From contig CAXXKA010000001.1 in assembly GCA_963668625.2 (NCBI GenBank), positions 512,001-576,000 of the forward strand: a stretch of DNA of 64,000 nucleotides. The letters run 5' to 3'. This DNA is from an uncultured candidate division Zixibacteria bacterium (GTDB lineage Bacteria; Zixibacteria; MSB-5A5; UBA10806; 4484-95). Of the stretch, positions 5,272 to 60,594 are shown in pieces; the stretch's first letter is position 1; each line of letters opens with the position of its first letter. The notes under the pieces are model-generated. The model saw only the letters and a list, made by a program, of their open reading frames with translations, ran no database searches and was not told the DNA's origin. The translations under genes and the position numbers were made by a program.

Positions 5272-5341
5272 TCTACTCTCCTTAAAACTTGGAAATAAGT
5301 TTAAGATATTAATTTATTCTTTTTCCAGCCGTTTCGATTGC

Positions 5342-5359
5342 TTGTGAAAAACATAACAA
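5342..5359. promoter_or_regulatory. Rex-like operator upstream of qmoA
   Basis: TTGTGAAAAACATAACAA, 18-bp imperfect palindrome. Confidence 0.55.
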
Positions 5360-5528
5360 TCGAGAATGCACTAACAGGCTTATATACAATACTTTTTCGC
5401 CTGTTTCAATGCATAGTATGGTAGATAATACTTAGAAAATACTTTGTCAAGAAAATATAATTACACGGTCAAGTTCAAGCAGTTTATTAAGATATCCTAA
5501 CTGAAATTATGTTCAATCTCGTTTTTGA

Positions 5529-5546
5529 TTGTATCTTTTATCACAA
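5529..5546. promoter_or_regulatory. Second Rex-like operator upstream of qmoA
   Basis: TTGTATCTTTTATCACAA, 18-bp imperfect palindrome. Confidence 0.45.
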
Positions 5547-5606
5547 ATAAAACTGCGAACTAAGTATTAATGAGGTTAATTGGATTTATTAATATATGAT
5601 ATATTT

Positions 5607-5720
5607 CATTACTGTCCCGTCTGTGCTATCTCATTACTTCGCAACGCGGCTTGCCTGCCGGCATATTGCACATGTTACATGACTCAAGAAGGTCTTCAGG
5701 CCGCGCTCGGAAACCAGGGG
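5607..5720 (-). mobile_element. Decayed partial copy of the 255-bp MITE
   Basis: cattactgtcccg...cttcgcaacgcggcttgcctgccggca...tacatgactcaagaagg...ggaaaccagg aligns to the right half of the element. Confidence 0.75.
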
Positions 5721-6010
5721 AAAGACAGATTAAAGCTGGGTAGCTCGTGAATCGGAATATCAGTGTATTGGAGCAGAGTTTTAAATTCATCTGAATGGAA
5801 AGAACGACATCCTGAGGCGCACTTTAACCAGGCCGGGTACTATTGAAATAGGATAATTTCTACATTTTCGTATTTGTTTTTTCTTGATAAAAATGTATTA
5901 ATTTATTAGTATTTTACATCAATATTAATTTGCAATTCAAATAAGACTTATTTCAAAATCGGATATTAATAGTTTAAACCTTGTTGATCGCATTAGGGGA
6001 AGGAGCATTT

Positions 6011-6577
6011 ATGCGGAAAATCGTTATAGTATTTTTGATTTTAGCATTCTTCACGCCGGCTTTATATGCCCTCGATGGTTTCTCGATAGGACCATACTAC
6101 GGCTATTGTTTTCCGGTAATTAACGATTGGGCGGAACCGGGGTCGGCTTACGGGATAAACGCCAAAACATCCCTTATGCCTTTTCTGGGAGTCGGCCTGT
6201 ATTTCAATTCGCGTGCTTATGATGATGTCGAACTCGTTTATTTTGATGGCGAACCATTCGGCTGGACGGAGTATATCGATGGTGGGGATGTTACCTCCTA
6301 CGGTATTAATCTCTACCTGGGAAAAACCGGCGGAATGGGACTGAACTATTACGCGATCGGCGGTATCGGCTCGCACAAATGGAAACGCGATTATAAGGAA
6401 GAGGATTCCAAAGTCGCGTATTCGCTGGGTTTAGGATTGGAATATGTATTGCCGATGAACCTGGGTATCGAGGCACGCGGCATATTCGAGGCAGCCTCGG
6501 CCGGCAACAAGAGCATGTGGAGATCGGCTATCGCCTCGGTTGGTGTAAACTATCATTTCAAACTCGGGCCAATGTAA
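6011..6577 (+). CDS. Outer-membrane beta-barrel protein (OmpA/OmpW-like)
   Basis: Signal peptide, alternating aromatic beta-strands, terminal ASVGVNYHF; GGAG RBS before ATG 6011. Confidence 0.75.
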   Translation: MRKIVIVFLILAFFTPALYALDGFSIGPYYGYCFPVINDWAEPGSAYGINAKTSLMPFLGVGLYFNSRAYDDVELVYFDGEPFGWTEYIDGGDVTSYGINLYLGKTGGMGLNYYAIGGIGSHKWKRDYKEEDSKVAYSLGLGLEYVLPMNLGIEARGIFEAASAGNKSMWRSAIASVGVNYHFKLGPM

Positions 6578-6589
6578 AAGGAGGGTAAA

Positions 6590-7111
6590 ATGAAAAAGAT
6601 ATCGATTTATGGGATGATTACTCTCCTGGCCATAATACTTTCGGGATGCCCTGATTTTCTCGGAACACCGCTTTTGATCGAATATGAGGTTGATGAGATA
6701 GTGTCTTCCGATGAAAACCTCGGAAGTGCTTATATCAATTTGGAAGATGACGATGATTTTGCCGAGCATCAGGATGAGATAGTTGCCGTGGATCACGTGT
6801 TCATCGGCGCGGTTATAGTAAATAACTCCGGCCATGCTGTTTCCGGTGAATTGTATTATTCAGTTGAAACTATGTATTCAGCTGATGAGGTGAGAAATGG
6901 GGCTGATTTGTTATACACTTCGCCGGATATCCCTGATCAGGATACATTGAGAGTATCATTTCAACCGGATATTTCAACCGGATTTGACCACGAATTGATG
7001 GCAGGCCAATTCCGTGTGTATGGCATCGGCAATCAGGATGATTTCGATGTTGAGGTTGAGGCTGAAATAAAGATACTGTTTTACTACAATCCCAATGAAA
7101 GCGAAGAATAG
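6590..7111 (+). CDS. Acidic lipoprotein, function unknown
   Basis: Lipobox LSGC; GGAGG RBS. Confidence 0.75.
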   Translation: MKKISIYGMITLLAIILSGCPDFLGTPLLIEYEVDEIVSSDENLGSAYINLEDDDDFAEHQDEIVAVDHVFIGAVIVNNSGHAVSGELYYSVETMYSADEVRNGADLLYTSPDIPDQDTLRVSFQPDISTGFDHELMAGQFRVYGIGNQDDFDVEVEAEIKILFYYNPNESEE

Positions 7112-7142
7112 CATATTCGAGTCGTCAGAATAGAATCAATAA

Positions 7143-7397
7143 CACTAGTGTCCGGTGTTTTTCGCTAATTTTTATATTTCTCTTTGGAAGTGTTAGTGAA
7201 AAATATTTTCCGATATAATTATTATATTCAGCGTATCATGCATCCTGACATGTCCTGCTGATGTTAGGCTTAGTTTCCTGGTTTCCAAGCGCTGCTTGGA
7301 AACCTTCTTGAGTCATGTAGAATGCGCATTCTGCCGGTAAACAAGCCACGTTGAGAAGCAGCGCTTCGCAACGAGATGGAAAGGCCGGACAGTAGTG
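7143..7397 (+). mobile_element. 255-bp MITE copy 1 (subtype A)
   Basis: TIRs CACTAGTGTCCGG / CCGGACAGTAGTG; 9-bp TSD AATCAATAA on both sides. Confidence 0.95.
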
Positions 7398-7587
7398 AAT
7401 CAATAATGTTTCTTGATACATTGAAAGCCTCCGGTAAACCGTTTTTTCGAGTCGTCGGGAATCCCTTCCTGACGACTTTATTTTACCATGATCAGTCAAT
7501 AAACCGTTTGAATGTTTCGATTAGATGATATATAATATCGCCTTAACTTAGCTACGCAATTGTTATGATTGTATTGGAGCATGAGGT

Positions 7588-8331
7588 TTGAGAAAAACGA
7601 TTCTATTTTTCGCGGTTCTACTGCTTTTTTCGGGATGCAATCTGTTCGAGGTAACCAATCCCTCGAATACCTCGACAGATTATCTGGCGGACGGCCAGAG
7701 CAAATACTGGAATCAGGATTTCGAGGGAGCCGTCATTGATTTCGAGAAAGCGATCCACCTGGATGCCGAGAACGGCGAGGCTTACTGGTGGCATGCCAAA
7801 GCTAAAATCCGCACTACCGGTTTTACTCCGATAGCCCTGATAAATGTCATTACCGGGCTTGACTCCTCCGGGGCGATACTGCCTTTCACCGATTGGAACG
7901 CCGATTCTGCCAGCGTAATTTACGAGGTACTGTTCGATATCAACGATGATCTGGAGAGGTTGTTTTACAACACTGTCAATGTCGGCGAACTCGACAAGCG
8001 TAACGTCGTATTCGATTACGCCCTGTCATTGGTATTACATGCTGTCCTAATGATGCGTGATACCAATATCGATGATATTATCGACACGACCGATATCAAT
8101 CTCGGTTCCTATTTCGAACAGGGCGAATTCAACATCCCGCCCGAACAATGGCAGCAACTTCAGCAGGTGGAACGTGCCGCGCTCCTGGATCGAGTGATTT
8201 ATATCCTGGAGCGTTTCAGTGATGTCTCCGTGTATATCACGGAAGATTTCGCCGGGATTAATATGAGCAGCTTGCGTTATACGGTAGATCGGATACTCGC
8301 GGTGCTATACATCCTGAGAATGGTACCATAG
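7588..8331 (+). CDS. TPR-containing lipoprotein
   Basis: Lipobox FSGC; TPR-like segment DFEGAVIDFEKAIHLDAENGEAYWW. Confidence 0.75.
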   Translation: MRKTILFFAVLLLFSGCNLFEVTNPSNTSTDYLADGQSKYWNQDFEGAVIDFEKAIHLDAENGEAYWWHAKAKIRTTGFTPIALINVITGLDSSGAILPFTDWNADSASVIYEVLFDINDDLERLFYNTVNVGELDKRNVVFDYALSLVLHAVLMMRDTNIDDIIDTTDINLGSYFEQGEFNIPPEQWQQLQQVERAALLDRVIYILERFSDVSVYITEDFAGINMSSLRYTVDRILAVLYILRMVP

Positions 8332-54495: not shown

Positions 54496-55959
54496 ATGAC
54501 CGAAGAATATAACGAAACCATAGAAGAAAGCGCCGACGAAATAGAAGGCAATTCCGAGGGAAGCGAGACCGAGGAACATGTCGATGAAGTTCAGATCAGA
54601 AAAGACCTGATCGATTCCGATGCCGGTAGCGATACGGCCTGGGCTTATTTCAAAGACCTGGGACGTTTTAATATTCTGACCCGCCAGCAGGAAATAACTG
54701 TCGCCAGGCGGATAGAGATGCATAAAATCAGTATCAAAGAGATAATCTTTTCCTCGCTGACGGTACTCGAGAAGATGCTCGAATGCCAGGACAGGCTTAT
54801 AAATAAAGAGATACGTCTTGAGGATATAGTCTCACCCGAGACCTGCCGGTGGTTCGCGCCGGAAAATATCAAACGCGAGAAATCCAATGTTTTGAGCCGG
54901 TTCAAAAGAATCAGCAAAATCATGGATGATGCCGAGAACCAGGTTAGCGAGAAAGAGAAAATCAAAAAGGGTAAACTTCAATTAAGATATAATCTCAGGC
55001 GTAAGTTGATGGCCGAGATCGAGAAGTTTAATTTCAACCTGGAGTTTCTCGAAAGCCTGACAAAGGTTTTCAAACTGCAGGCCAAGGATGGCAGGAAACA
55101 TCGGCGACCACACAGCAGCTTGCCCGAACTTCAGGATAAATCACCGATCGATTACCTCTTCGCCGAGGAGTTGCCGGTCGATGAGCTGGAGAAAGTCAAA
55201 AGACGTCTACGGTTTTTGGAACGCGAATTGGAGAAAGCCAAGCGTATCATGGTCGAGGCCAATATGCGTCTGGTAATCTCGATTGCCCGCAAGTATATCG
55301 GGCGGGGTATGGAATTCATGGACCTGGTGCAGGAGGGCAATTCCGGGCTGGTTAAGGCAGTCGATAAATTCGACTACACCAAAGGATTTAAATTCGGTAC
55401 CTACGCCTCCTGGTGGATTCGTCAGGCGATAACGCGGGCGCTGGCCGAGCAGGCTAAAACGATTCGCACCCCGATGTATCTCAACAGCCAGTATGGCCGG
55501 GTGGCGAAAGTATCGCAGAATTTATTCCAAAAACTGGGACGCAAACCCGATATCAAAGAGATCTCCGAACAATCGGGATTCCCCGAGGATAAGGTCGAGG
55601 ATATCATGCAGATGATACCTCAAACAGTGTCGCTTTCCAAGCCGTTGGGGGATGACGAGGAGAACCAGGTGTTCAACCTGATCGCCGATCCTCAATTTTC
55701 AACGACCTCGGGTAAAGCCTCATTCGTATATCTTCAAGATCAACTGGAGAAGGTGCTTCACACGCTCTCTCGTCGTGAGGAGGAAGTAATTCGTCTGAGA
55801 TTTGGAATGAAAGATGGTATGCCCAGAACACTTGAGGAAGTAGGATTGATTTTCAATCTCACGCGCGAGAGGATTCGTCAAATAGAGGCTAAAGCATTAA
55901 AGAAATTAAGGCATCGCACACGTTCCGAAAAATTGAAAGAATGTATCGATCTGTTGTAA
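54496..55959 (+). CDS. rpoD: RpoD/SigA-family sigma70 factor (divergent)
   Basis: [41 protein letters not shown]; directly after dnaG. Confidence 0.85.
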
Positions 55960-56119
55960 GTAGACGGCGTTAGATGCTGGATCGTATCAGTTTTTTTTCG
56001 AGGTCAGGAAAGATAGTATGATTACTAATCAGCATCTAATAGCCGGATTATTACAGGGGCAAAATGCTACTTATTCCGGGTTAGAGATTTTATTATTGGC
56101 TTATGTCAAATATTCATTA

Positions 56120-56148
56120 TTGACAGATACTTACATTAATGCTATTTT
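56120..56148 (+). promoter_or_regulatory. Putative promoter of the CPPYC operon
   Basis: TTGACA-17-TATTTT with extended -10 TG. Confidence 0.5.
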
Positions 56149-56293
56149 ATTCATGTGAATGGAATCGATTTATCAATAATAAGTGTGCTCGGTTAAAATT
56201 ATTGCAACAAAGGTTAAGTATTTCAGTATATTGAGCTAGTCTCTCGTACAGCTCTTAAGCAAATGGTCTAACTTTAAAACGAATGGGGGAATT

Positions 56294-56614
56294 ATGAACC
56301 TCGATCCGAAAAAAGATCACTCAATTGACTTGGACACTGCCGCAAAATTAACCAAACGATTTCGAGCTAAAACTAAACCAGGAGACTCGATTTCAGTAGC
56401 TTTCAACAAGGCAGCAATTGCGGGGATCATGGATCAATCTGGATGTGTGGGGCTTAGGATGTATTTTGCCTTGACCGATGAAGGCAAGGAAACAGTCGTT
56501 TTAGTTGGTGTTGATGAAAAGGGAAATGATTTATTCAAAGGCCAACTTATGGAATGGGGAGGAGACTGTCCCCCGTATTGCTCGGGAGCGAATCCGCTCA
56601 ATGGCGAAAGTTAG
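56294..56614 (+). CDS. Small protein with GLRMYFA/LVGVD core and C-terminal CPPYC motif
   Basis: 106-aa ORF with GGGGGA RBS; ends MEWGGDCPPYCSGANPLNGES; no signal peptide. Confidence 0.8.
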   Translation: MNLDPKKDHSIDLDTAAKLTKRFRAKTKPGDSISVAFNKAAIAGIMDQSGCVGLRMYFALTDEGKETVVLVGVDEKGNDLFKGQLMEWGGDCPPYCSGANPLNGES

Positions 56615-56617
56615 TAC

Positions 56618-57343
56618 TTGTTCTACTTGTTCTTAATACAGAATAGTTTTACGATAATCGCTTTGATAACTGGCATTATTTGTTACCGGCGGTTATCGAA
56701 ACCATTGAAATTACTATTCTATCTCATTATGGTTATGGTAGCGGTAGAAAGTTATTCTTTCTACCGCTTTCTTGATGCAAAACCAAATCACTGGCCGTCA
56801 CATATATATATGGTTATAGAGTTCGTGTTGTTTTTCCTCATATTCAAGCAGTGGCAATCGAGCAAAATTATAATTAAAGCAATCAATTATGTCGTACCTA
56901 CATTCTTACTGTTTTGTATTATAAATTACATCTTTTTCAGCCAGCCGATATTTCTGCTCGTGGATGGTCTGATTGTTTTCAACTCCTGGGCTCTATATAA
57001 TTTTATACCGATAAAAATCGCAGTCGTATTTTTCACTGCCATTTCCGCTTTTACTATACTTCAATTGTTTGAAAACGACCGGGGAGATATCTTGGAGATC
57101 CCAGCTTTCTGGGTAAGCTCGGGCTTATTGTTCTTCTCGTCGGTATCGATTGTTTATTTTATACTGGTTACTTTTGTCGTAGTAAGTGATAAATACGCTA
57201 TTTATCCAGCTATCACAATGACAGCTACTAATGTGATGGCCAATTCTTTTTATGCAATGAGTTTCATTGTTCAATGGAAGCACTCCAGGGATTGTTCGCC
57301 GGAAAATATAAAAGATATAAGTAGCCAAGATTTTATGTTATAG
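56618..57343 (+). CDS. Multi-pass (about 7 TM) membrane protein, receptor-like
   Basis: Starts 3 nt after the upstream stop; about seven hydrophobic segments; N..P.HIY..IEF and P.FWVSSGLLFF motifs. Confidence 0.75.
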   Translation: MFYLFLIQNSFTIIALITGIICYRRLSKPLKLLFYLIMVMVAVESYSFYRFLDAKPNHWPSHIYMVIEFVLFFLIFKQWQSSKIIIKAINYVVPTFLLFCIINYIFFSQPIFLLVDGLIVFNSWALYNFIPIKIAVVFFTAISAFTILQLFENDRGDILEIPAFWVSSGLLFFSSVSIVYFILVTFVVVSDKYAIYPAITMTATNVMANSFYAMSFIVQWKHSRDCSPENIKDISSQDFML

Positions 57344-57458
57344 CATGAGGTTGTTTGCTTTTAATCGCTAATGCAATCCAGGATTAAGAAATTTATTTAT
57401 TGCATATTTACAGATTTGTGTTATTATTGCGTATATATGTACGGAATCAGGAGTTTCT

Positions 57459-58337
57459 ATGACTAGTTCATTATTCGGAAGTATGCTAATTATAATAGCA
57501 ATACTCACAATACTGTCAATTAGTATTGTCAGTGGTGTTATAACCCACAGCCGAAAAATCCGTGAACAGGAAGCTAAATTCAGATTGTTGTTTAATAAAG
57601 TAAGCGATGCTTTAATAGTGTTCGATATAGATGAGAAAATCCATAGTGTAAACGAATCAGCCGGTAGTTTACTAAAATATCAAGATAAAGAGATAGTAAA
57701 ATCAAATTTAAAGGATATAATAGTAAAAGATAAGTGGCTGGAATTATCCGAGAATTTAAAAAAAGTCTTTACTACCGGTAAATCCTTTAACTCCGAATCG
57801 AGCCTTCTGGATGCCAAAGGCAATACTATCGAGGTGGAGGTTATCGGGGTAAAAATAAAACTGAAAAACAAGCAATACATTCTTACCAGTTTCAGGGATA
57901 TCACTCGCCGTAAACATGATGAAATGCAACTCAGGAAGAAACATATTGCGCTTCAGGAGGTACTGGCGCACCTGGAGGATGAGAAACTGAAGATCAAGCA
58001 GCAGGTTGCTAAGACAGTAGATCAGGTCTTGATGCCGACGTTGAACAGAATAAACAGCAGCCAGACTAGTTCAAATCAGGGCTATTTTGATGTGTTAAAG
58101 AATGGTCTTGAGGAACTATCAAGCACCTCGAGTACGATCGTGCAAATTTACTCGAAACTGACACCGAGAGAGATCGAAATCTGCAATTTAATCAAAAACG
58201 GCTCGACCTCCAAAGAGATCGCTCAGACTTTAAACATCTCAATGTTAACTGTAAATAAACATCGAGAAAGAATAAGAAAAAAACTGGTAATCTCCAATAA
58301 AAGCATAAACCTAACCTCTTATTTGAAAAGGTTATAG
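57459..58337 (+). CDS. Membrane-anchored PAS + LuxR-HTH regulator
   Basis: N-terminal TM helix, FRLLFNKVSDALIV..VNESA..RDITRRK (PAS), LTPREIEIC..TSKEIA..TVNKHRERIRKKL. Confidence 0.9.
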   Translation: MTSSLFGSMLIIIAILTILSISIVSGVITHSRKIREQEAKFRLLFNKVSDALIVFDIDEKIHSVNESAGSLLKYQDKEIVKSNLKDIIVKDKWLELSENLKKVFTTGKSFNSESSLLDAKGNTIEVEVIGVKIKLKNKQYILTSFRDITRRKHDEMQLRKKHIALQEVLAHLEDEKLKIKQQVAKTVDQVLMPTLNRINSSQTSSNQGYFDVLKNGLEELSSTSSTIVQIYSKLTPREIEICNLIKNGSTSKEIAQTLNISMLTVNKHRERIRKKLVISNKSINLTSYLKRL

Positions 58338-58350
58338 CATAAGTATCTCG

Positions 58351-58366
58351 TACGTATATGTACGTA
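58351..58366. promoter_or_regulatory. Palindromic candidate operator
   Basis: TACGTATATGTACGTA, 23 bp upstream of a TTGACT -35 at 58390. Confidence 0.45.
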
Positions 58367-58427
58367 ATACGAACCTTATCTTTGCCGCATTGACTATCTC
58401 GAAATAAGTCCTATATATATTATAAAT

Positions 58428-58604
58428 GCAAAATAAAACTGTTTTGCGAATAGCTGAGAAAGTTTAGAACTCTAATTTCTGATTAGAGTGAAAGTCCCAT
58501 CTCTTTTTGGTGATAGGGGGGCTTATTTCATCCTCTTCGTGGACTAGTTGTTCGTTAATTACGTAACAATAGCCGCGATAAAATAAGCCTCTCTATTCTT
58601 TTTT
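58428..58604 (+). ncRNA. Candidate structured ncRNA or attenuator leader
   Basis: Hairpins at 58428-58447 and 58469-58489, a long rod at 58513-58596 with G-U pairs, then a T-tract; promoter-like sequence upstream; no ORF of 60 aa or more. Confidence 0.45.
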
Positions 58605-58851
58605 AATACCTGCATACGTTATAAGTACTCTATATACTACCATTGACAATAAAATGAATACACGATGTTAGTAGAACTGTTAATCCCCGATATCATTTAA
58701 GTCTTGAAATAATATAGATATAATAATAAAATCAGCTCTGGCTATTTTATGTATGTCGTTGGCCTGTAAAACAAAAACGAAACTAAAAACTAAATATTTC
58801 GTAAAAGGGGAAAGAAACAAGCGATAAATCCGCCTCAAAGGAGGTAAACTT

Positions 58852-60594
58852 ATGAACAAGCTCATGATCAAGACGGCAATAGTAATTGCAGCGTTCGTGT
58901 TAGGCACAGTTTCCTCATGGGCAGAGGTTTTGATAAAACTTGATAACCCGGAGTATGATAATATTAAGGTAACGGGTTTTGAGTTAGAAAAGCCAGGCAA
59001 CATTGAAATAGAGGCGGTTGGATTAAGCCTGAGATATCAGGATGATCTTAATGTGTATGCCTGGATTATCGATCATGATACACGAGAATTAGTTTGGACG
59101 ATGAAAGAACGTCGAGCAGACAGGATTCGCGGAAGTAAAGTGCTTTACGAAGAGAAACTGGATCAATATTTCGATAAAGGTAAATATGAAATTTACCTTT
59201 TTACCAGTGATTTTTCCTTTTCTAATATCTCTATTCATGGTACGGGTGATTTTTTCGAGTTTTTGGGGGATATTTTTAGCGATGATTATGACAGGGAATG
59301 GGATAAATATATCGAGGATTGCCATGTCCAGTTATCATCGAATGATATCTCTAAAAGTGATTTCAAGGAGTTTGATGCCAACGGCGATCTGCCCGGCGCT
59401 CTTATTAAATACAATCGAGTAGGTGATTCCGAATATATCTCGACTGGAATTAGACTTGAAAAGCCGATGTCATTAAAAATCTACTCATTGTTCGAATTTC
59501 CCAAAGATTATAGGGATCCGGTCGATTATGGCTGGTTGGTGAATGCTAAAACTCTTGAGAAAGTATGGGAAATAGACAGATGGAACACTGATTGGGCCGG
59601 CGGTAGTAGAAAAAACAGAATGTTCAATGATGAGATCAAGCTGGACAAAGGCGATTATATACTTTATTTCGTTACCGATGATTCTCATTCATATGAACGA
59701 TTTAATGCTAATCCCCCTTACGATCCTATTAATTGGGGTATCACTATTTTGCCCGGAAAAGATTTCGATAAAGGCGCTTTCAAAACTTATGAGCCGGCGG
59801 GCAGGGGAGATCCACTGCTTGAATTAACCCGAGCTCGGGATCGTGATTTCCTCGAGCAGCCTTTCAAGATGAAAAAAGACGGTGTTATTCATATCTATGC
59901 CGTTGGCGAATATTCATATAGTTCGCGTGAGTTTGCCGATTTCGGCTGGATACAAGATGCCGCCAGTGGTAAAATAGTCTGGGAAATGAGCTACCGTAAT
60001 ACCGACCATGCCGGTGGAGCTAAGAAAAACCGCAAATTCGACGGCCAGGTCGAGCTGAAAAAAGGCCAGTATATAGCTTATTATTCCACTGATGATTCGC
60101 ATTCGTACCGTGACTGGAACGATTCACCGCCGTTCGATCCTAAAGCCTGGGGGCTTGCCATTTACGCGGGACCTGATTTTGATAAGAAAAATTTTGAAAA
60201 GATATCCCAAAAGGATCTAACCTCGAATTCCAATATCCTGGTTAAAATGGTGATGGTTCGGGATGGCGAACGCCGGCGCGAGAAATTCACGCTGGATAAG
60301 CAGTCGCGTATTCATATTTATGCCATAGGCGAGGCCGATCGCGATGAGATGTATGATTACGGCTGGATCGTCGATGATCGCACCAATCGCTCGGTTTGGG
60401 AAATGACCTGGAGAAATACCGAACCTGCCGGCGGAGCTCGAAAAAACCGTCTATTCGATGACGATATACTGCTTGATCCAGGTACCTACGAGGTATATTT
60501 CGTCTCCGATGGCTCGCACTCGTTCAACGATTGGAATGCCTCTAAACCTCGCGATCCGATTAATTGGGGTATTACGGTCAGTAAATCAGAATAA
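58852..60594 (+). CDS. Secreted protein of four tandem ~140-aa repeats, function unknown
   Basis: Signal peptide; repeated GWI..VWEM..RNT..AGG..KNR.F...TDDSHSY..WN..P.DP..WG; GGAGG RBS. Confidence 0.85.
   Translation: MNKLMIKTAIVIAAFVLGTVSSWAEVLIKLDNPEYDNIKVTGFELEKPGNIEIEAVGLSLRYQDDLNVYAWIIDHDTRELVWTMKERRADRIRGSKVLYEEKLDQYFDKGKYEIYLFTSDFSFSNISIHGTGDFFEFLGDIFSDDYDREWDKYIEDCHVQLSSNDISKSDFKEFDANGDLPGALIKYNRVGDSEYISTGIRLEKPMSLKIYSLFEFPKDYRDPVDYGWLVNAKTLEKVWEIDRWNTDWAGGSRKNRMFNDEIKLDKGDYILYFVTDDSHSYERFNANPPYDPINWGITILPGKDFDKGAFKTYEPAGRGDPLLELTRARDRDFLEQPFKMKKDGVIHIYAVGEYSYSSREFADFGWIQDAASGKIVWEMSYRNTDHAGGAKKNRKFDGQVELKKGQYIAYYSTDDSHSYRDWNDSPPFDPKAWGLAIYAGPDFDKKNFEKISQKDLTSNSNILVKMVMVRDGERRREKFTLDKQSRIHIYAIGEADRDEMYDYGWIVDDRTNRSVWEMTWRNTEPAGGARKNRLFDDDILLDPGTYEVYFVSDGSHSFNDWNASKPRDPINWGITVSKSE

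Follow-up and report, generated by a model that had tools for sequence, protein, structure and literature searches.

The kinases BceS and LiaS are of the HisKA_3 type, work with regulators of the NarL/LuxR type and need, for perception, a separately encoded membrane protein (BceAB and LiaF, respectively). In haloarchaea, the seven-helix receptor sensory rhodopsin II signals to its transducer, HtrII, by way of helix-helix contacts in the membrane. Variable regions are known from agr (AgrB-D-C-A) and comQXPA, and the ComP/ComA pair of the latter is also of the HisKA_3/NarL type. In Staphylococcus aureus, saePQRS encodes the lipoprotein SaeP, the membrane protein SaeQ, the intramembrane-sensing kinase SaeS and the regulator SaeR, with the auxiliary proteins reported to act on the kinase (PMC3748130, PMC5083920, PMC4388633), and BguR of marine Bacteroidota is reported to be a one-component regulator that spans the membrane (bioRxiv 10.64898/2026.01.10.698779). 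The subject of the present work is a three-gene locus (56120..58337) in a stretch of 64,000 nucleotides (nt), hereafter the window, from contig CAXXKA010000001.1 (forward strand, 512,001-576,000) of assembly GCA_963668625.2, an uncultured candidate division Zixibacteria bacterium (GTDB Bacteria; Zixibacteria; MSB-5A5; UBA10806; 4484-95). Its genes encode a small protein with a cysteine motif near its C-terminus, a seven-transmembrane (7TM) protein, and a regulator that joins a single transmembrane (TM) helix to a PAS domain and a LuxR-type helix-turn-helix (HTH).

The locus is a kinase-free member of a widespread, undescribed cassette, and we put at about 0.5 the probability that its small protein, its 7TM protein and the helix of its transducer together make up a single input device whose parts co-evolve in mutual contact. 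No description of the cassette was found in the open-access library searched, so that two unnamed families here make up a form of accessory-sensor signalling that has gone undescribed; the window carries the kinase-free form. By our comparison, it is closest to saePQRS-type systems in gene organisation, to agr and comQXPA in evolutionary pattern, and to sensory rhodopsin and its transducer in membrane logic, while failing defining features of each. It has in common with the rhodopsin system a seven-helix protein, here a candidate receptor, and a separate membrane-anchored transducer, but with one transducer helix instead of two and with a kinase or LuxR HTH output instead of a chemotaxis-type domain. 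BceS and LiaS differ in having accessory proteins of unrelated families and kinases with two TM helices, and no consistent Pfam or NCBIfam match (hmmscan) relates the small and 7TM proteins to SaeP/SaeQ, LiaF or BceAB. Like the cassette, saePQRS is a four-gene operon, in which a small (lipo)protein and a polytopic membrane protein are encoded with a regulator and with a kinase that has next to nothing outside the cytoplasm; here, in contrast, there is a seven-helix bundle resembling G-protein-coupled receptors (GPCRs), a one-TM kinase, a mostly leaderless small protein and hypervariable inputs, and the window has no kinase. The agr and comQXPA loci are reported also to place a fast-diverging signal/receptor block beside a conserved kinase core and regulator (PMC4408185, PMC3673130). 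In such systems the receptor is the polytopic kinase itself and the signal a short processed peptide with a dedicated maturation enzyme. The cassette has instead a separate receptor-like protein, a single-pass kinase and, as candidate signal, a folded 100-residue domain without a maturation gene; no short precursor of the agr/comQXPA type with a dedicated enzyme was found, the window's protein being a folded domain of 106 amino acids (aa) with no conserved neighbouring enzyme. BguR shares with the window's third gene product the design of a membrane-anchored DNA-binding regulator without a phosphorelay, but has a large periplasmic sensor domain of its own, whereas the window's regulator has few residues outside the membrane and stands behind the small/7TM pair.

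Gene order and co-occurrence were recorded in three locus sets, all picked via the small protein alone: relatives in the window's phylum (61 genomes); 80 loci from the genome_contigs set, matched by a profile from a 10-row alignment, two of which were dropped as duplicates; and an even sample of Bacteroidia (Bacteroidota), where 50 of 301 genomes match, including the unpublished G469, and the other hits, with G469 left out, give 60 loci. About one in six of the sampled Bacteroidia genomes, and several other phyla besides, carry the module; the titles of the genome_contigs loci include Bacteroidia, Ignavibacteria, Gemmatimonadota, Calditrichaceae and Edwardsbacteria. The small gene occurs in 21 of the 61 relatives and the 7TM gene in the same 21, while across the phylum sample the small gene is present in 21 of 285 genomes and 3 of 20 families. 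Directly 3' of the small gene, at a median distance of 6 nt, lies the 7TM gene at all assessable genome_contigs loci (72/72; six more have too little downstream DNA), at 53 of 59 loci of the even Bacteroidia sample, and at 17 of 20 loci in the relatives, where L037 adds one more with a 346-nt gap and the exceptions L047 and L048 are second copies. The Bacteroidia misses comprise two loci (L168, L172) in which the gap is filled by an open reading frame (ORF) of 6-7 TM helices too divergent for the profile, a gene fragment (L190), and three members (L133-135) of a separate subfamily of secreted two-domain paralogues. These last (L133, L134, L135), a divergent two-domain subfamily with Sec signals, end in CPxxC and form tandem paralogues without an adjacent 7TM gene.

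Downstream of the pair, the next gene is kinase-like in 56/72 genome_contigs pairs and 47/53 Bacteroidia pairs, followed by a regulator in 49 and 44, respectively. When Pfam was run on the next ORF of loci L051-L130 (67 proteins, picked by a simple filter), HisKA_3 and/or HATPase_c appeared in 51, and a PAS-HisKA-HATPase-REC hybrid (L058), a PAS-PAS-GGDEF-HD protein (L086) and a REC-GerE protein (L066) in one each; 13 of the 67 have no Pfam match, 12 on the opposite strand, mostly in Gemmatimonadota, and the second-next ORF is REC plus GerE in 44 of 77. The Bacteroidia form consists of the pair, a minimal HisKA_3 kinase and then a REC-LuxR regulator. An initial annotation of this DNA, made from the sequence alone, had pointed to pairs of this kind in Bacteroidota, lying beside a histidine kinase with one TM helix and a LuxR response regulator, and tabulating the neighbourhoods bears this out, with conserved linkage to TM-kinase or TM-LuxR genes across the locus sets. 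Two marks of accessory-dependent intramembrane-sensing systems are likewise found at these loci, a sensorless transducer and a co-encoded membrane protein (the latter at 72/72, 53/59 and 17/20), the histidine kinase and response regulator of such systems being present in the Bacteroidia cassettes but absent from the window's form. Tandem arrangements also occur in some genomes (L111 of Hymenobacter fastidiosus, 5333-7717; L151/L122, 1934-5501): three 7TM paralogues may stand between a single small gene and the kinase, or several small/7TM pairs may follow one another.

All transducers listed with an N-terminal TM helix share one design: 5-15 residues, one helix and then cytoplasmic domains, with no extracytoplasmic sensor. 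Because their output domains differ, the helix and its flanks are the sole feature common to the transducer types, and because the helix alone is common to all, it is on this helix that the small/7TM pair would act, which is our main argument. The window's regulator fits the design, having a short N-tail and a hydrophobic segment at residues 1-31 (TM helix at about 6-30), followed in Pfam by PAS_9 (5e-9, residues 52-149) and GerE/LuxR HTH (1e-12, residues 233-281) and in NCBIfam by TIGR00229 PAS (2e-17), with a helical linker between PAS and HTH. Neither Pfam nor NCBIfam finds a HisKA, HATPase or REC domain in it, and its 17 Pfam matches are all to PAS or HTH families, none to an acyl-homoserine-lactone autoinducer-binding domain. 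Its linker and HTH (residues from about 150 to 292) recur at about 50% identity at the C-termini of 800-1850-aa ORFs in the same genome, with 43-53% identity for the stretches C8:85820-86233, C6:883757-884164 and C4:161068-161508, in ORFs of 1147-1846 aa, and similar ORFs occur in relatives. By sequence, linker and HTH look like a lineage-typical output module, and the long ORFs may represent giant one-component LuxR regulators of a family specific to the lineage.

The 7TM protein is predicted by AlphaFold2 to have exactly seven long helices (predicted local distance difference test, pLDDT, 89.7; predicted template-modelling score, pTM, 0.86), joined by very short loops (mean lengths 3-9 residues). 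Lysine and arginine are located on loops 1, 3 and 5 and at the C-terminus, and their count, about 5.4 on inner versus 2.0-2.4 on outer loops, gives an N-out, C-in topology. Its fold class is that of a receptor-like bundle: Foldseek ranks microbial rhodopsins and GPCRs highest (E 8e-3 to 0.3, TM-score 0.47-0.59), and in a VIA all-against-all comparison the best 50 rows consist of GPCRs, folds like theirs and rhodopsins (Z 10.7-13.6 across some 190-220 residues), although Z below about 13 can reflect a common helical arrangement, so that a receptor-like bundle is what we claim from the model, not homology to GPCRs or rhodopsins. Conserved positions include P15, G19, N57, Y64, E68, F96, F164, W165, Y173, G176 and N205, with no Cys, His, Ser or Lys among them; since helix 7 thus offers no conserved lysine of the kind that binds retinal, retinal binding is not expected. 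No Pfam family recurs among 77 members of the 7TM family, and 7TMR-DISM_7TM matches one of the 77 at E 0.026, far below the cut-off, which does not place the family among the 7TMR-DISM receptors. The roles of an intramembrane protease, a DsbB-like protein or a transporter were considered and rejected, there being no conserved Cys or His and fold matches to receptors only. In the window's protein, the loop joining helices 4 and 5 carries an additional hydrophobic segment, 14-20 residues long (residues about 108-128; 56939-57001), that is absent from aligned homologues and modelled with low confidence (pLDDT 63-64).

The small protein of the window has no hydrophobic segment and no signal peptide, and is modelled (pLDDT 88) as a folded alpha/beta domain of two helices, a beta-hairpin and a tail. 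Its family became apparent in an exhaustive HMMER search, which at E<=1e-3 gave 2051 cluster representatives, 682 of them at E<=1e-10, where a word-index homology search had returned one relative for the small protein and none for the 7TM protein. Many homologues are tandem two-domain proteins of about 250 aa with two CPxxC motifs. The initial annotation had singled out a CPPxC motif, and its conservation is upheld in a broader form: the family motif is CPxxC, not CPPYC, because the invariant residues are C92, P93 and C96, which, with R55, are the same in 46/46 single-domain members. Among small proteins adjoining a 7TM gene, CPxxC is found in 127 of 142, with the two residues within the ring variable and a tail of fixed length thereafter (8 residues in 67/127, 10 in 20/127, the window's having 10); the other 15 of the 142 have no Cys pair, mostly keep the Pro-Pro core and keep the tail, and no distinct change is seen in the residues of the 7TM proteins paired with them. 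By a crude test, about 108 of 150 family representatives are leaderless, and in at least nine 7TM-paired small proteins the N-terminus bears an anchor or a signal of the lipoprotein or Sec type (L123, L131, L132, L136, L138, L144, L090, L114, L065); either the domain acts on either side of the membrane in different lineages, or the leaderless forms would be exported by some other route.

Neither the small nor the 7TM protein of the window matches Pfam or NCBIfam (hmmscan), PADLOC or PHROGs. Among 46 small-family members no Pfam family recurs, a single weak match to Thioredoxin_8 (E 0.006) being the only one; the family profile finds nothing better than E>=0.29 among PDB sequences, and the fold has no Foldseek match at E<=0.001 and a best VIA Z of 3.4, with no thioredoxin among the rows. 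The clusters returned by the ESM Atlas are all called "hypothetical protein" and have no Pfam 38.1 family, with Bacteroidota as their most frequent source, and the NCBI and UniRef records looked up for the families are also named "hypothetical protein". The suggestion that the small protein belongs to no characterised family therefore stands across the Pfam, NCBIfam, PDB and fold searches, and the three findings which the initial annotation had said would overturn its model (no synteny elsewhere, an unconserved motif, a known family) did not appear. A search for longer forms gave nine matches, all two-domain proteins of 224-257 aa, and no small-7TM fusion, which is weak evidence. A complex prediction for the 7TM and small proteins scored 0.00, which is no answer and not evidence either way.

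The input parts diverge faster than the rest of the locus. Between the window and same-genus G001, the sigma-70 protein is 83% identical and an upstream 576-aa ORF 64%, against 46% for the small and 30% for the 7TM protein; compared with the relative G009, the regulator is 56% and a downstream 580-aa protein 67% identical, the small protein 39% and the 7TM protein 35%. From 83 complete cassettes, 67 pairs have regulators >=60% identical, and over these the mean identity is 49% for the 7TM protein, 69% for the small protein, 73% for the kinase and 77% for the regulator, with the 7TM protein less conserved than both kinase and regulator in 64/67 pairs. In 16 close pairs pooled, the kinase N-terminus is 66% identical versus 93% for its remainder, and the small domain 78% versus 65% for the tail. 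Taken descriptively, 7TM identity follows that of the small protein's tail with a rank correlation of 0.70 (0.62 after removing the identity of kinase core and regulator), and that of its N-domain with 0.58 (0.29 after the same removal). One group of five loci shows, by sequence comparison, block replacement of the input parts: between L070/072/078 and L097/103, the regulator is 88-94% and the cytoplasmic part of the kinase 89-92% identical, the kinase N-tail and TM helix 20-23%, the 7TM protein 20-29%, the small domain 67-74% and the last 22 residues of the small protein 45-55%.

In the window's clade the transducer takes another form, a TM-PAS-GerE orthologue 3' of the 7TM gene in 15 of 20 relatives' loci (Pfam-confirmed in 12), two of the 15 being 980-aa multi-PAS forms; in same-genus G001 the locus is cut by a contig end. 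An unrooted tree of 85 7TM proteins groups the window with 12 PAS-LuxR-linked proteins plus G001 and G002, with a Shimodaira-Hasegawa-like approximate likelihood ratio (SH-aLRT) value of 96, within a wider set of 32 rows (SH-aLRT 95) that includes Gemmatimonadota and Calditrichota as well as cassettes whose kinases bear PAS domains; the Bacteroidia cassettes with a minimal kinase fall in the other half. On this sequence evidence, the kinase-free form is a clade-specific variant inherited within the phylum, and because the tree is unrooted we claim no direction of change. The one-component version that the initial annotation had proposed is thus found in this clade, with TM-PAS-LuxR where Bacteroidia have kinase and regulator. 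In two relatives, a stand-alone receiver domain of 122 aa lies 3' of the TM-PAS-LuxR gene (L040, 308-673; L041, 6474-6839), and in several others groES is found there with a 545-aa ORF that is probably groEL.

A mechanism may be sketched in which the GPCR-shaped 7TM protein would be the membrane receptor and the small protein its cognate partner or ligand, with specificity residing in the fixed-length C-terminal CPxxC tail. Any change of state in the 7TM protein would travel laterally within the membrane to reach the transducer's lone N-terminal TM helix, the putative receiver in a protein that has no sensor domain of its own. In most lineages, a minimal HisKA_3 kinase would thereupon phosphorylate the REC-LuxR regulator, and in the window's clade the TM-PAS-LuxR protein would act directly on DNA, with its PAS domain as a possible second, cytoplasmic input. 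The analysis establishes the order and co-occurrence of the genes, their domains, the class of fold and the quicker divergence on the input side; we infer the physical contacts, the direction of signalling, the nature of the stimulus and the membrane side on which the small protein acts. That the 7TM protein is a receptor docking onto the transducer's TM helix, as first suggested in the initial annotation, is supported indirectly, by the receptor-like fold, by the sensorless transducers, and by the helix having been replaced together with the 7TM protein in one allele switch.

Several observations weigh against this reading. The contacts between small protein, 7TM protein and transducer are putative. 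One fixed contact face is hard to picture when the small protein is leaderless in most members and signal-bearing in at least nine 7TM-paired ones, while the orientation of the 7TM protein is the same, unchanged in the partners of the exported forms. Most Gemmatimonadota pairs have no adjacent transducer gene, and nor has same-genus G002 (89% complete), where secG and tpiA come after the pair and close orthologues of the regulator are missing. Polytopic membrane proteins are generally fast-evolving, and the locus pairs compared are related, hence the correlations and divergence figures are descriptive and are not tests. Block replacement that includes the kinase helix is one event, the helix being 93-100% identical in other close pairs while the 7TM protein diverges. 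Variation in the 7TM protein has no side bias (outer half 59% versus 61% for the inner, the outer being lower in 14/24 pairs), and the tail of the small protein does not vary more than its domain does in the window's clade (43% versus 39%). In that clade, the first 30 residues of the regulator are 28% identical versus 46% for the rest.

The same variable block could be read, along the lines of the initial annotation, as that of a pheromone circuit, in which the small protein or a CPxxC peptide leaves the cell, is sensed outside by the 7TM protein and signals via the single-pass transducer, the block marking communication groups as in agr and comQXP. This is possible though unlikely. A variable block beside a conserved kinase core and regulator agrees with the pherotypes described for ComQXPA (PMC4408185), the lipoprotein and Sec-type forms place the domain outside the cytoplasm, and the tail of fixed length following a ring with two variable residues also speaks for it. 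Yet the small protein is a folded, conserved domain of 85 residues, not a short leader with a peptide, most members carry no export signal, the pair has no conserved neighbour that is a peptidase, an exporter or a modifying enzyme, the conserved 7TM positions hold no Cys, His or Ser hinting at an AgrB-like peptidase, and the tail is not more variable than the rest in the window's clade. A bolder version, which we regard as distinctly unlikely, is a prokaryotic peptide-GPCR-like signalling with pherotypes, where the CPxxC tail would be an agonist entering a 7TM pocket, the signal would run via a separate single-pass transducer, and tail, receptor and helix would diversify jointly, giving rise in Bacteroidota, Gemmatimonadota and allied phyla to private groups for communication or self-recognition. 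To our knowledge, peptide quorum sensing is essentially unknown in the Gram-negative phyla concerned, and, if true, this version would amount to a cell-cell signalling system in them.

The initial annotation had cast the small protein as a signal precursor or a redox/metal switch, neither of which sits well with a folded conserved domain, of which 15/142 paired members have no Cys pair and beside which no processing or export gene is conserved. As a cytoplasmic switch, the CPxxC pair, possibly in a dimer, would bind metal or form a disulfide and report to the 7TM protein or the transducer; the invariance of C, P and C in single-domain members, the tandem homologues whose two motifs suggest a dimer offering four Cys, and the leaderless state of most members are what one would expect, but the Cys-less members retain the Pro-Pro core and tail, the signal-bearing and lipoprotein forms put the domain outside the cytoplasm, and the fold shows no clear resemblance to thioredoxin or known metal-binding folds (the best Z and the one weak Pfam match in 46 given above), all of which makes the switch improbable. 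Very doubtful as well is a cargo reading, in which the small and 7TM proteins would serve the envelope, for instance in transport or in protecting the membrane, and would merely share a transcript with the neighbouring regulator that controls them, the transducer sensing the membrane itself. Regulators often share an operon with their targets, the 7TM loops are very short, and some pairs have no adjacent transducer gene, yet the transducers have no sensing part beyond one helix while five output types follow the same pair, one allele switch exchanged the kinase helix along with the 7TM protein, and the 7TM fold matches are all receptors or rhodopsins, with no transporters.

Returning to a single input device of small protein, 7TM protein and transducer helix, its interest lies in two large families, unnamed in Pfam, NCBIfam and the public records looked up, which together appear to be the missing sensor for a very common class of "sensorless" single-pass kinases. 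If this reading holds, the cassette would provide a seven-helix receptor from bacteria whose signal runs via a separate transducer, one input wired by nature to a range of outputs (kinase, hybrid kinase, cyclic-di-GMP enzyme, direct LuxR regulator), and a recognition block, evolving fast, by which communication or specificity groups may be marked; the window's form would indicate that this input can be linked to transcription with no phosphotransfer. The presence of the cassette in the cultivable and harmless genera Pontibacter, Hymenobacter and Flavobacterium, with the four-gene form at loci L104, L111 and L124 and the Flavobacterium being F. aurantiibacter, makes it directly testable.

Features of the locus and its upstream neighbour (positions within the window)
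Feature	Position	Strand	Description
Sigma-70 gene	54496-55959		Upstream of the three genes; Pfam Sigma70 r1_2, r2, r3, r4
Promoter-like site	56120..56148	+	TTGACA, 17 nt, TATTTT; 10/12 positions match; in the 334-nt AT-rich gap after the sigma-70 gene
Small protein gene, 106 aa	56294..56614	+	ORF; CPPYC 10 residues before the C-terminus
7TM protein gene, 241 aa	56618..57343	+	ORF; TTG start 3 nt past the stop of the small gene
Membrane-anchored regulator gene, 292 aa	57459..58337	+	ORF; TM, PAS, LuxR/GerE HTH

The layout of the locus agrees in ORFs, base composition, domains and TM content with its first description as three co-oriented AT-rich genes after rpoD, the fraction of guanine plus cytosine being 0.31-0.42 at about 55750-59250 versus 0.45-0.52 just upstream, and the small and 7TM genes are each single-copy in the window's genome. 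The long TTG start of the 7TM gene is favoured over a shorter call of 212 aa, which would lose helix 1, because homologues align over that first helix. A scan for promoter hexamers gave 10 sites against 11.7 expected in shuffled DNA, so the site at 56120 is no evidence of a promoter; no 8-mer upstream of the small gene is common to 16 clade loci, except the ribosome-binding site, that could be a shared operator, and an Rfam scan of 55800-59000 gave no match. At 56612-56620 the small and 7TM genes share a reading frame, separated by TAG and one codon, and read-through would fuse them; the arrangement is probably incidental, because the spacing differs at other loci, some of which overlap. A hairpin with a perfect 12-bp stem and a 5-nt loop, terminator-like in the scan, lies inside the 7TM coding region (56740-56768, + strand). 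Direct repeats of 16 nt (88% identity; 56141-56156 and 58741-58756) stand upstream of the small gene and of a 580-aa gene, and others of 14 nt (93%; 57434-57447 and 58355-58368) flank the regulator gene; both may be chance occurrences. The 580-aa protein (58852-60594, + strand), with an N-terminal signal-like helix and about four internal repeats, has no match in Pfam, NCBIfam, PADLOC or PHROGs; its 67%-identical orthologue in G009 (L043) lies immediately 3' of the PAS-LuxR gene, and the protein could be a target of the PAS-LuxR regulator.

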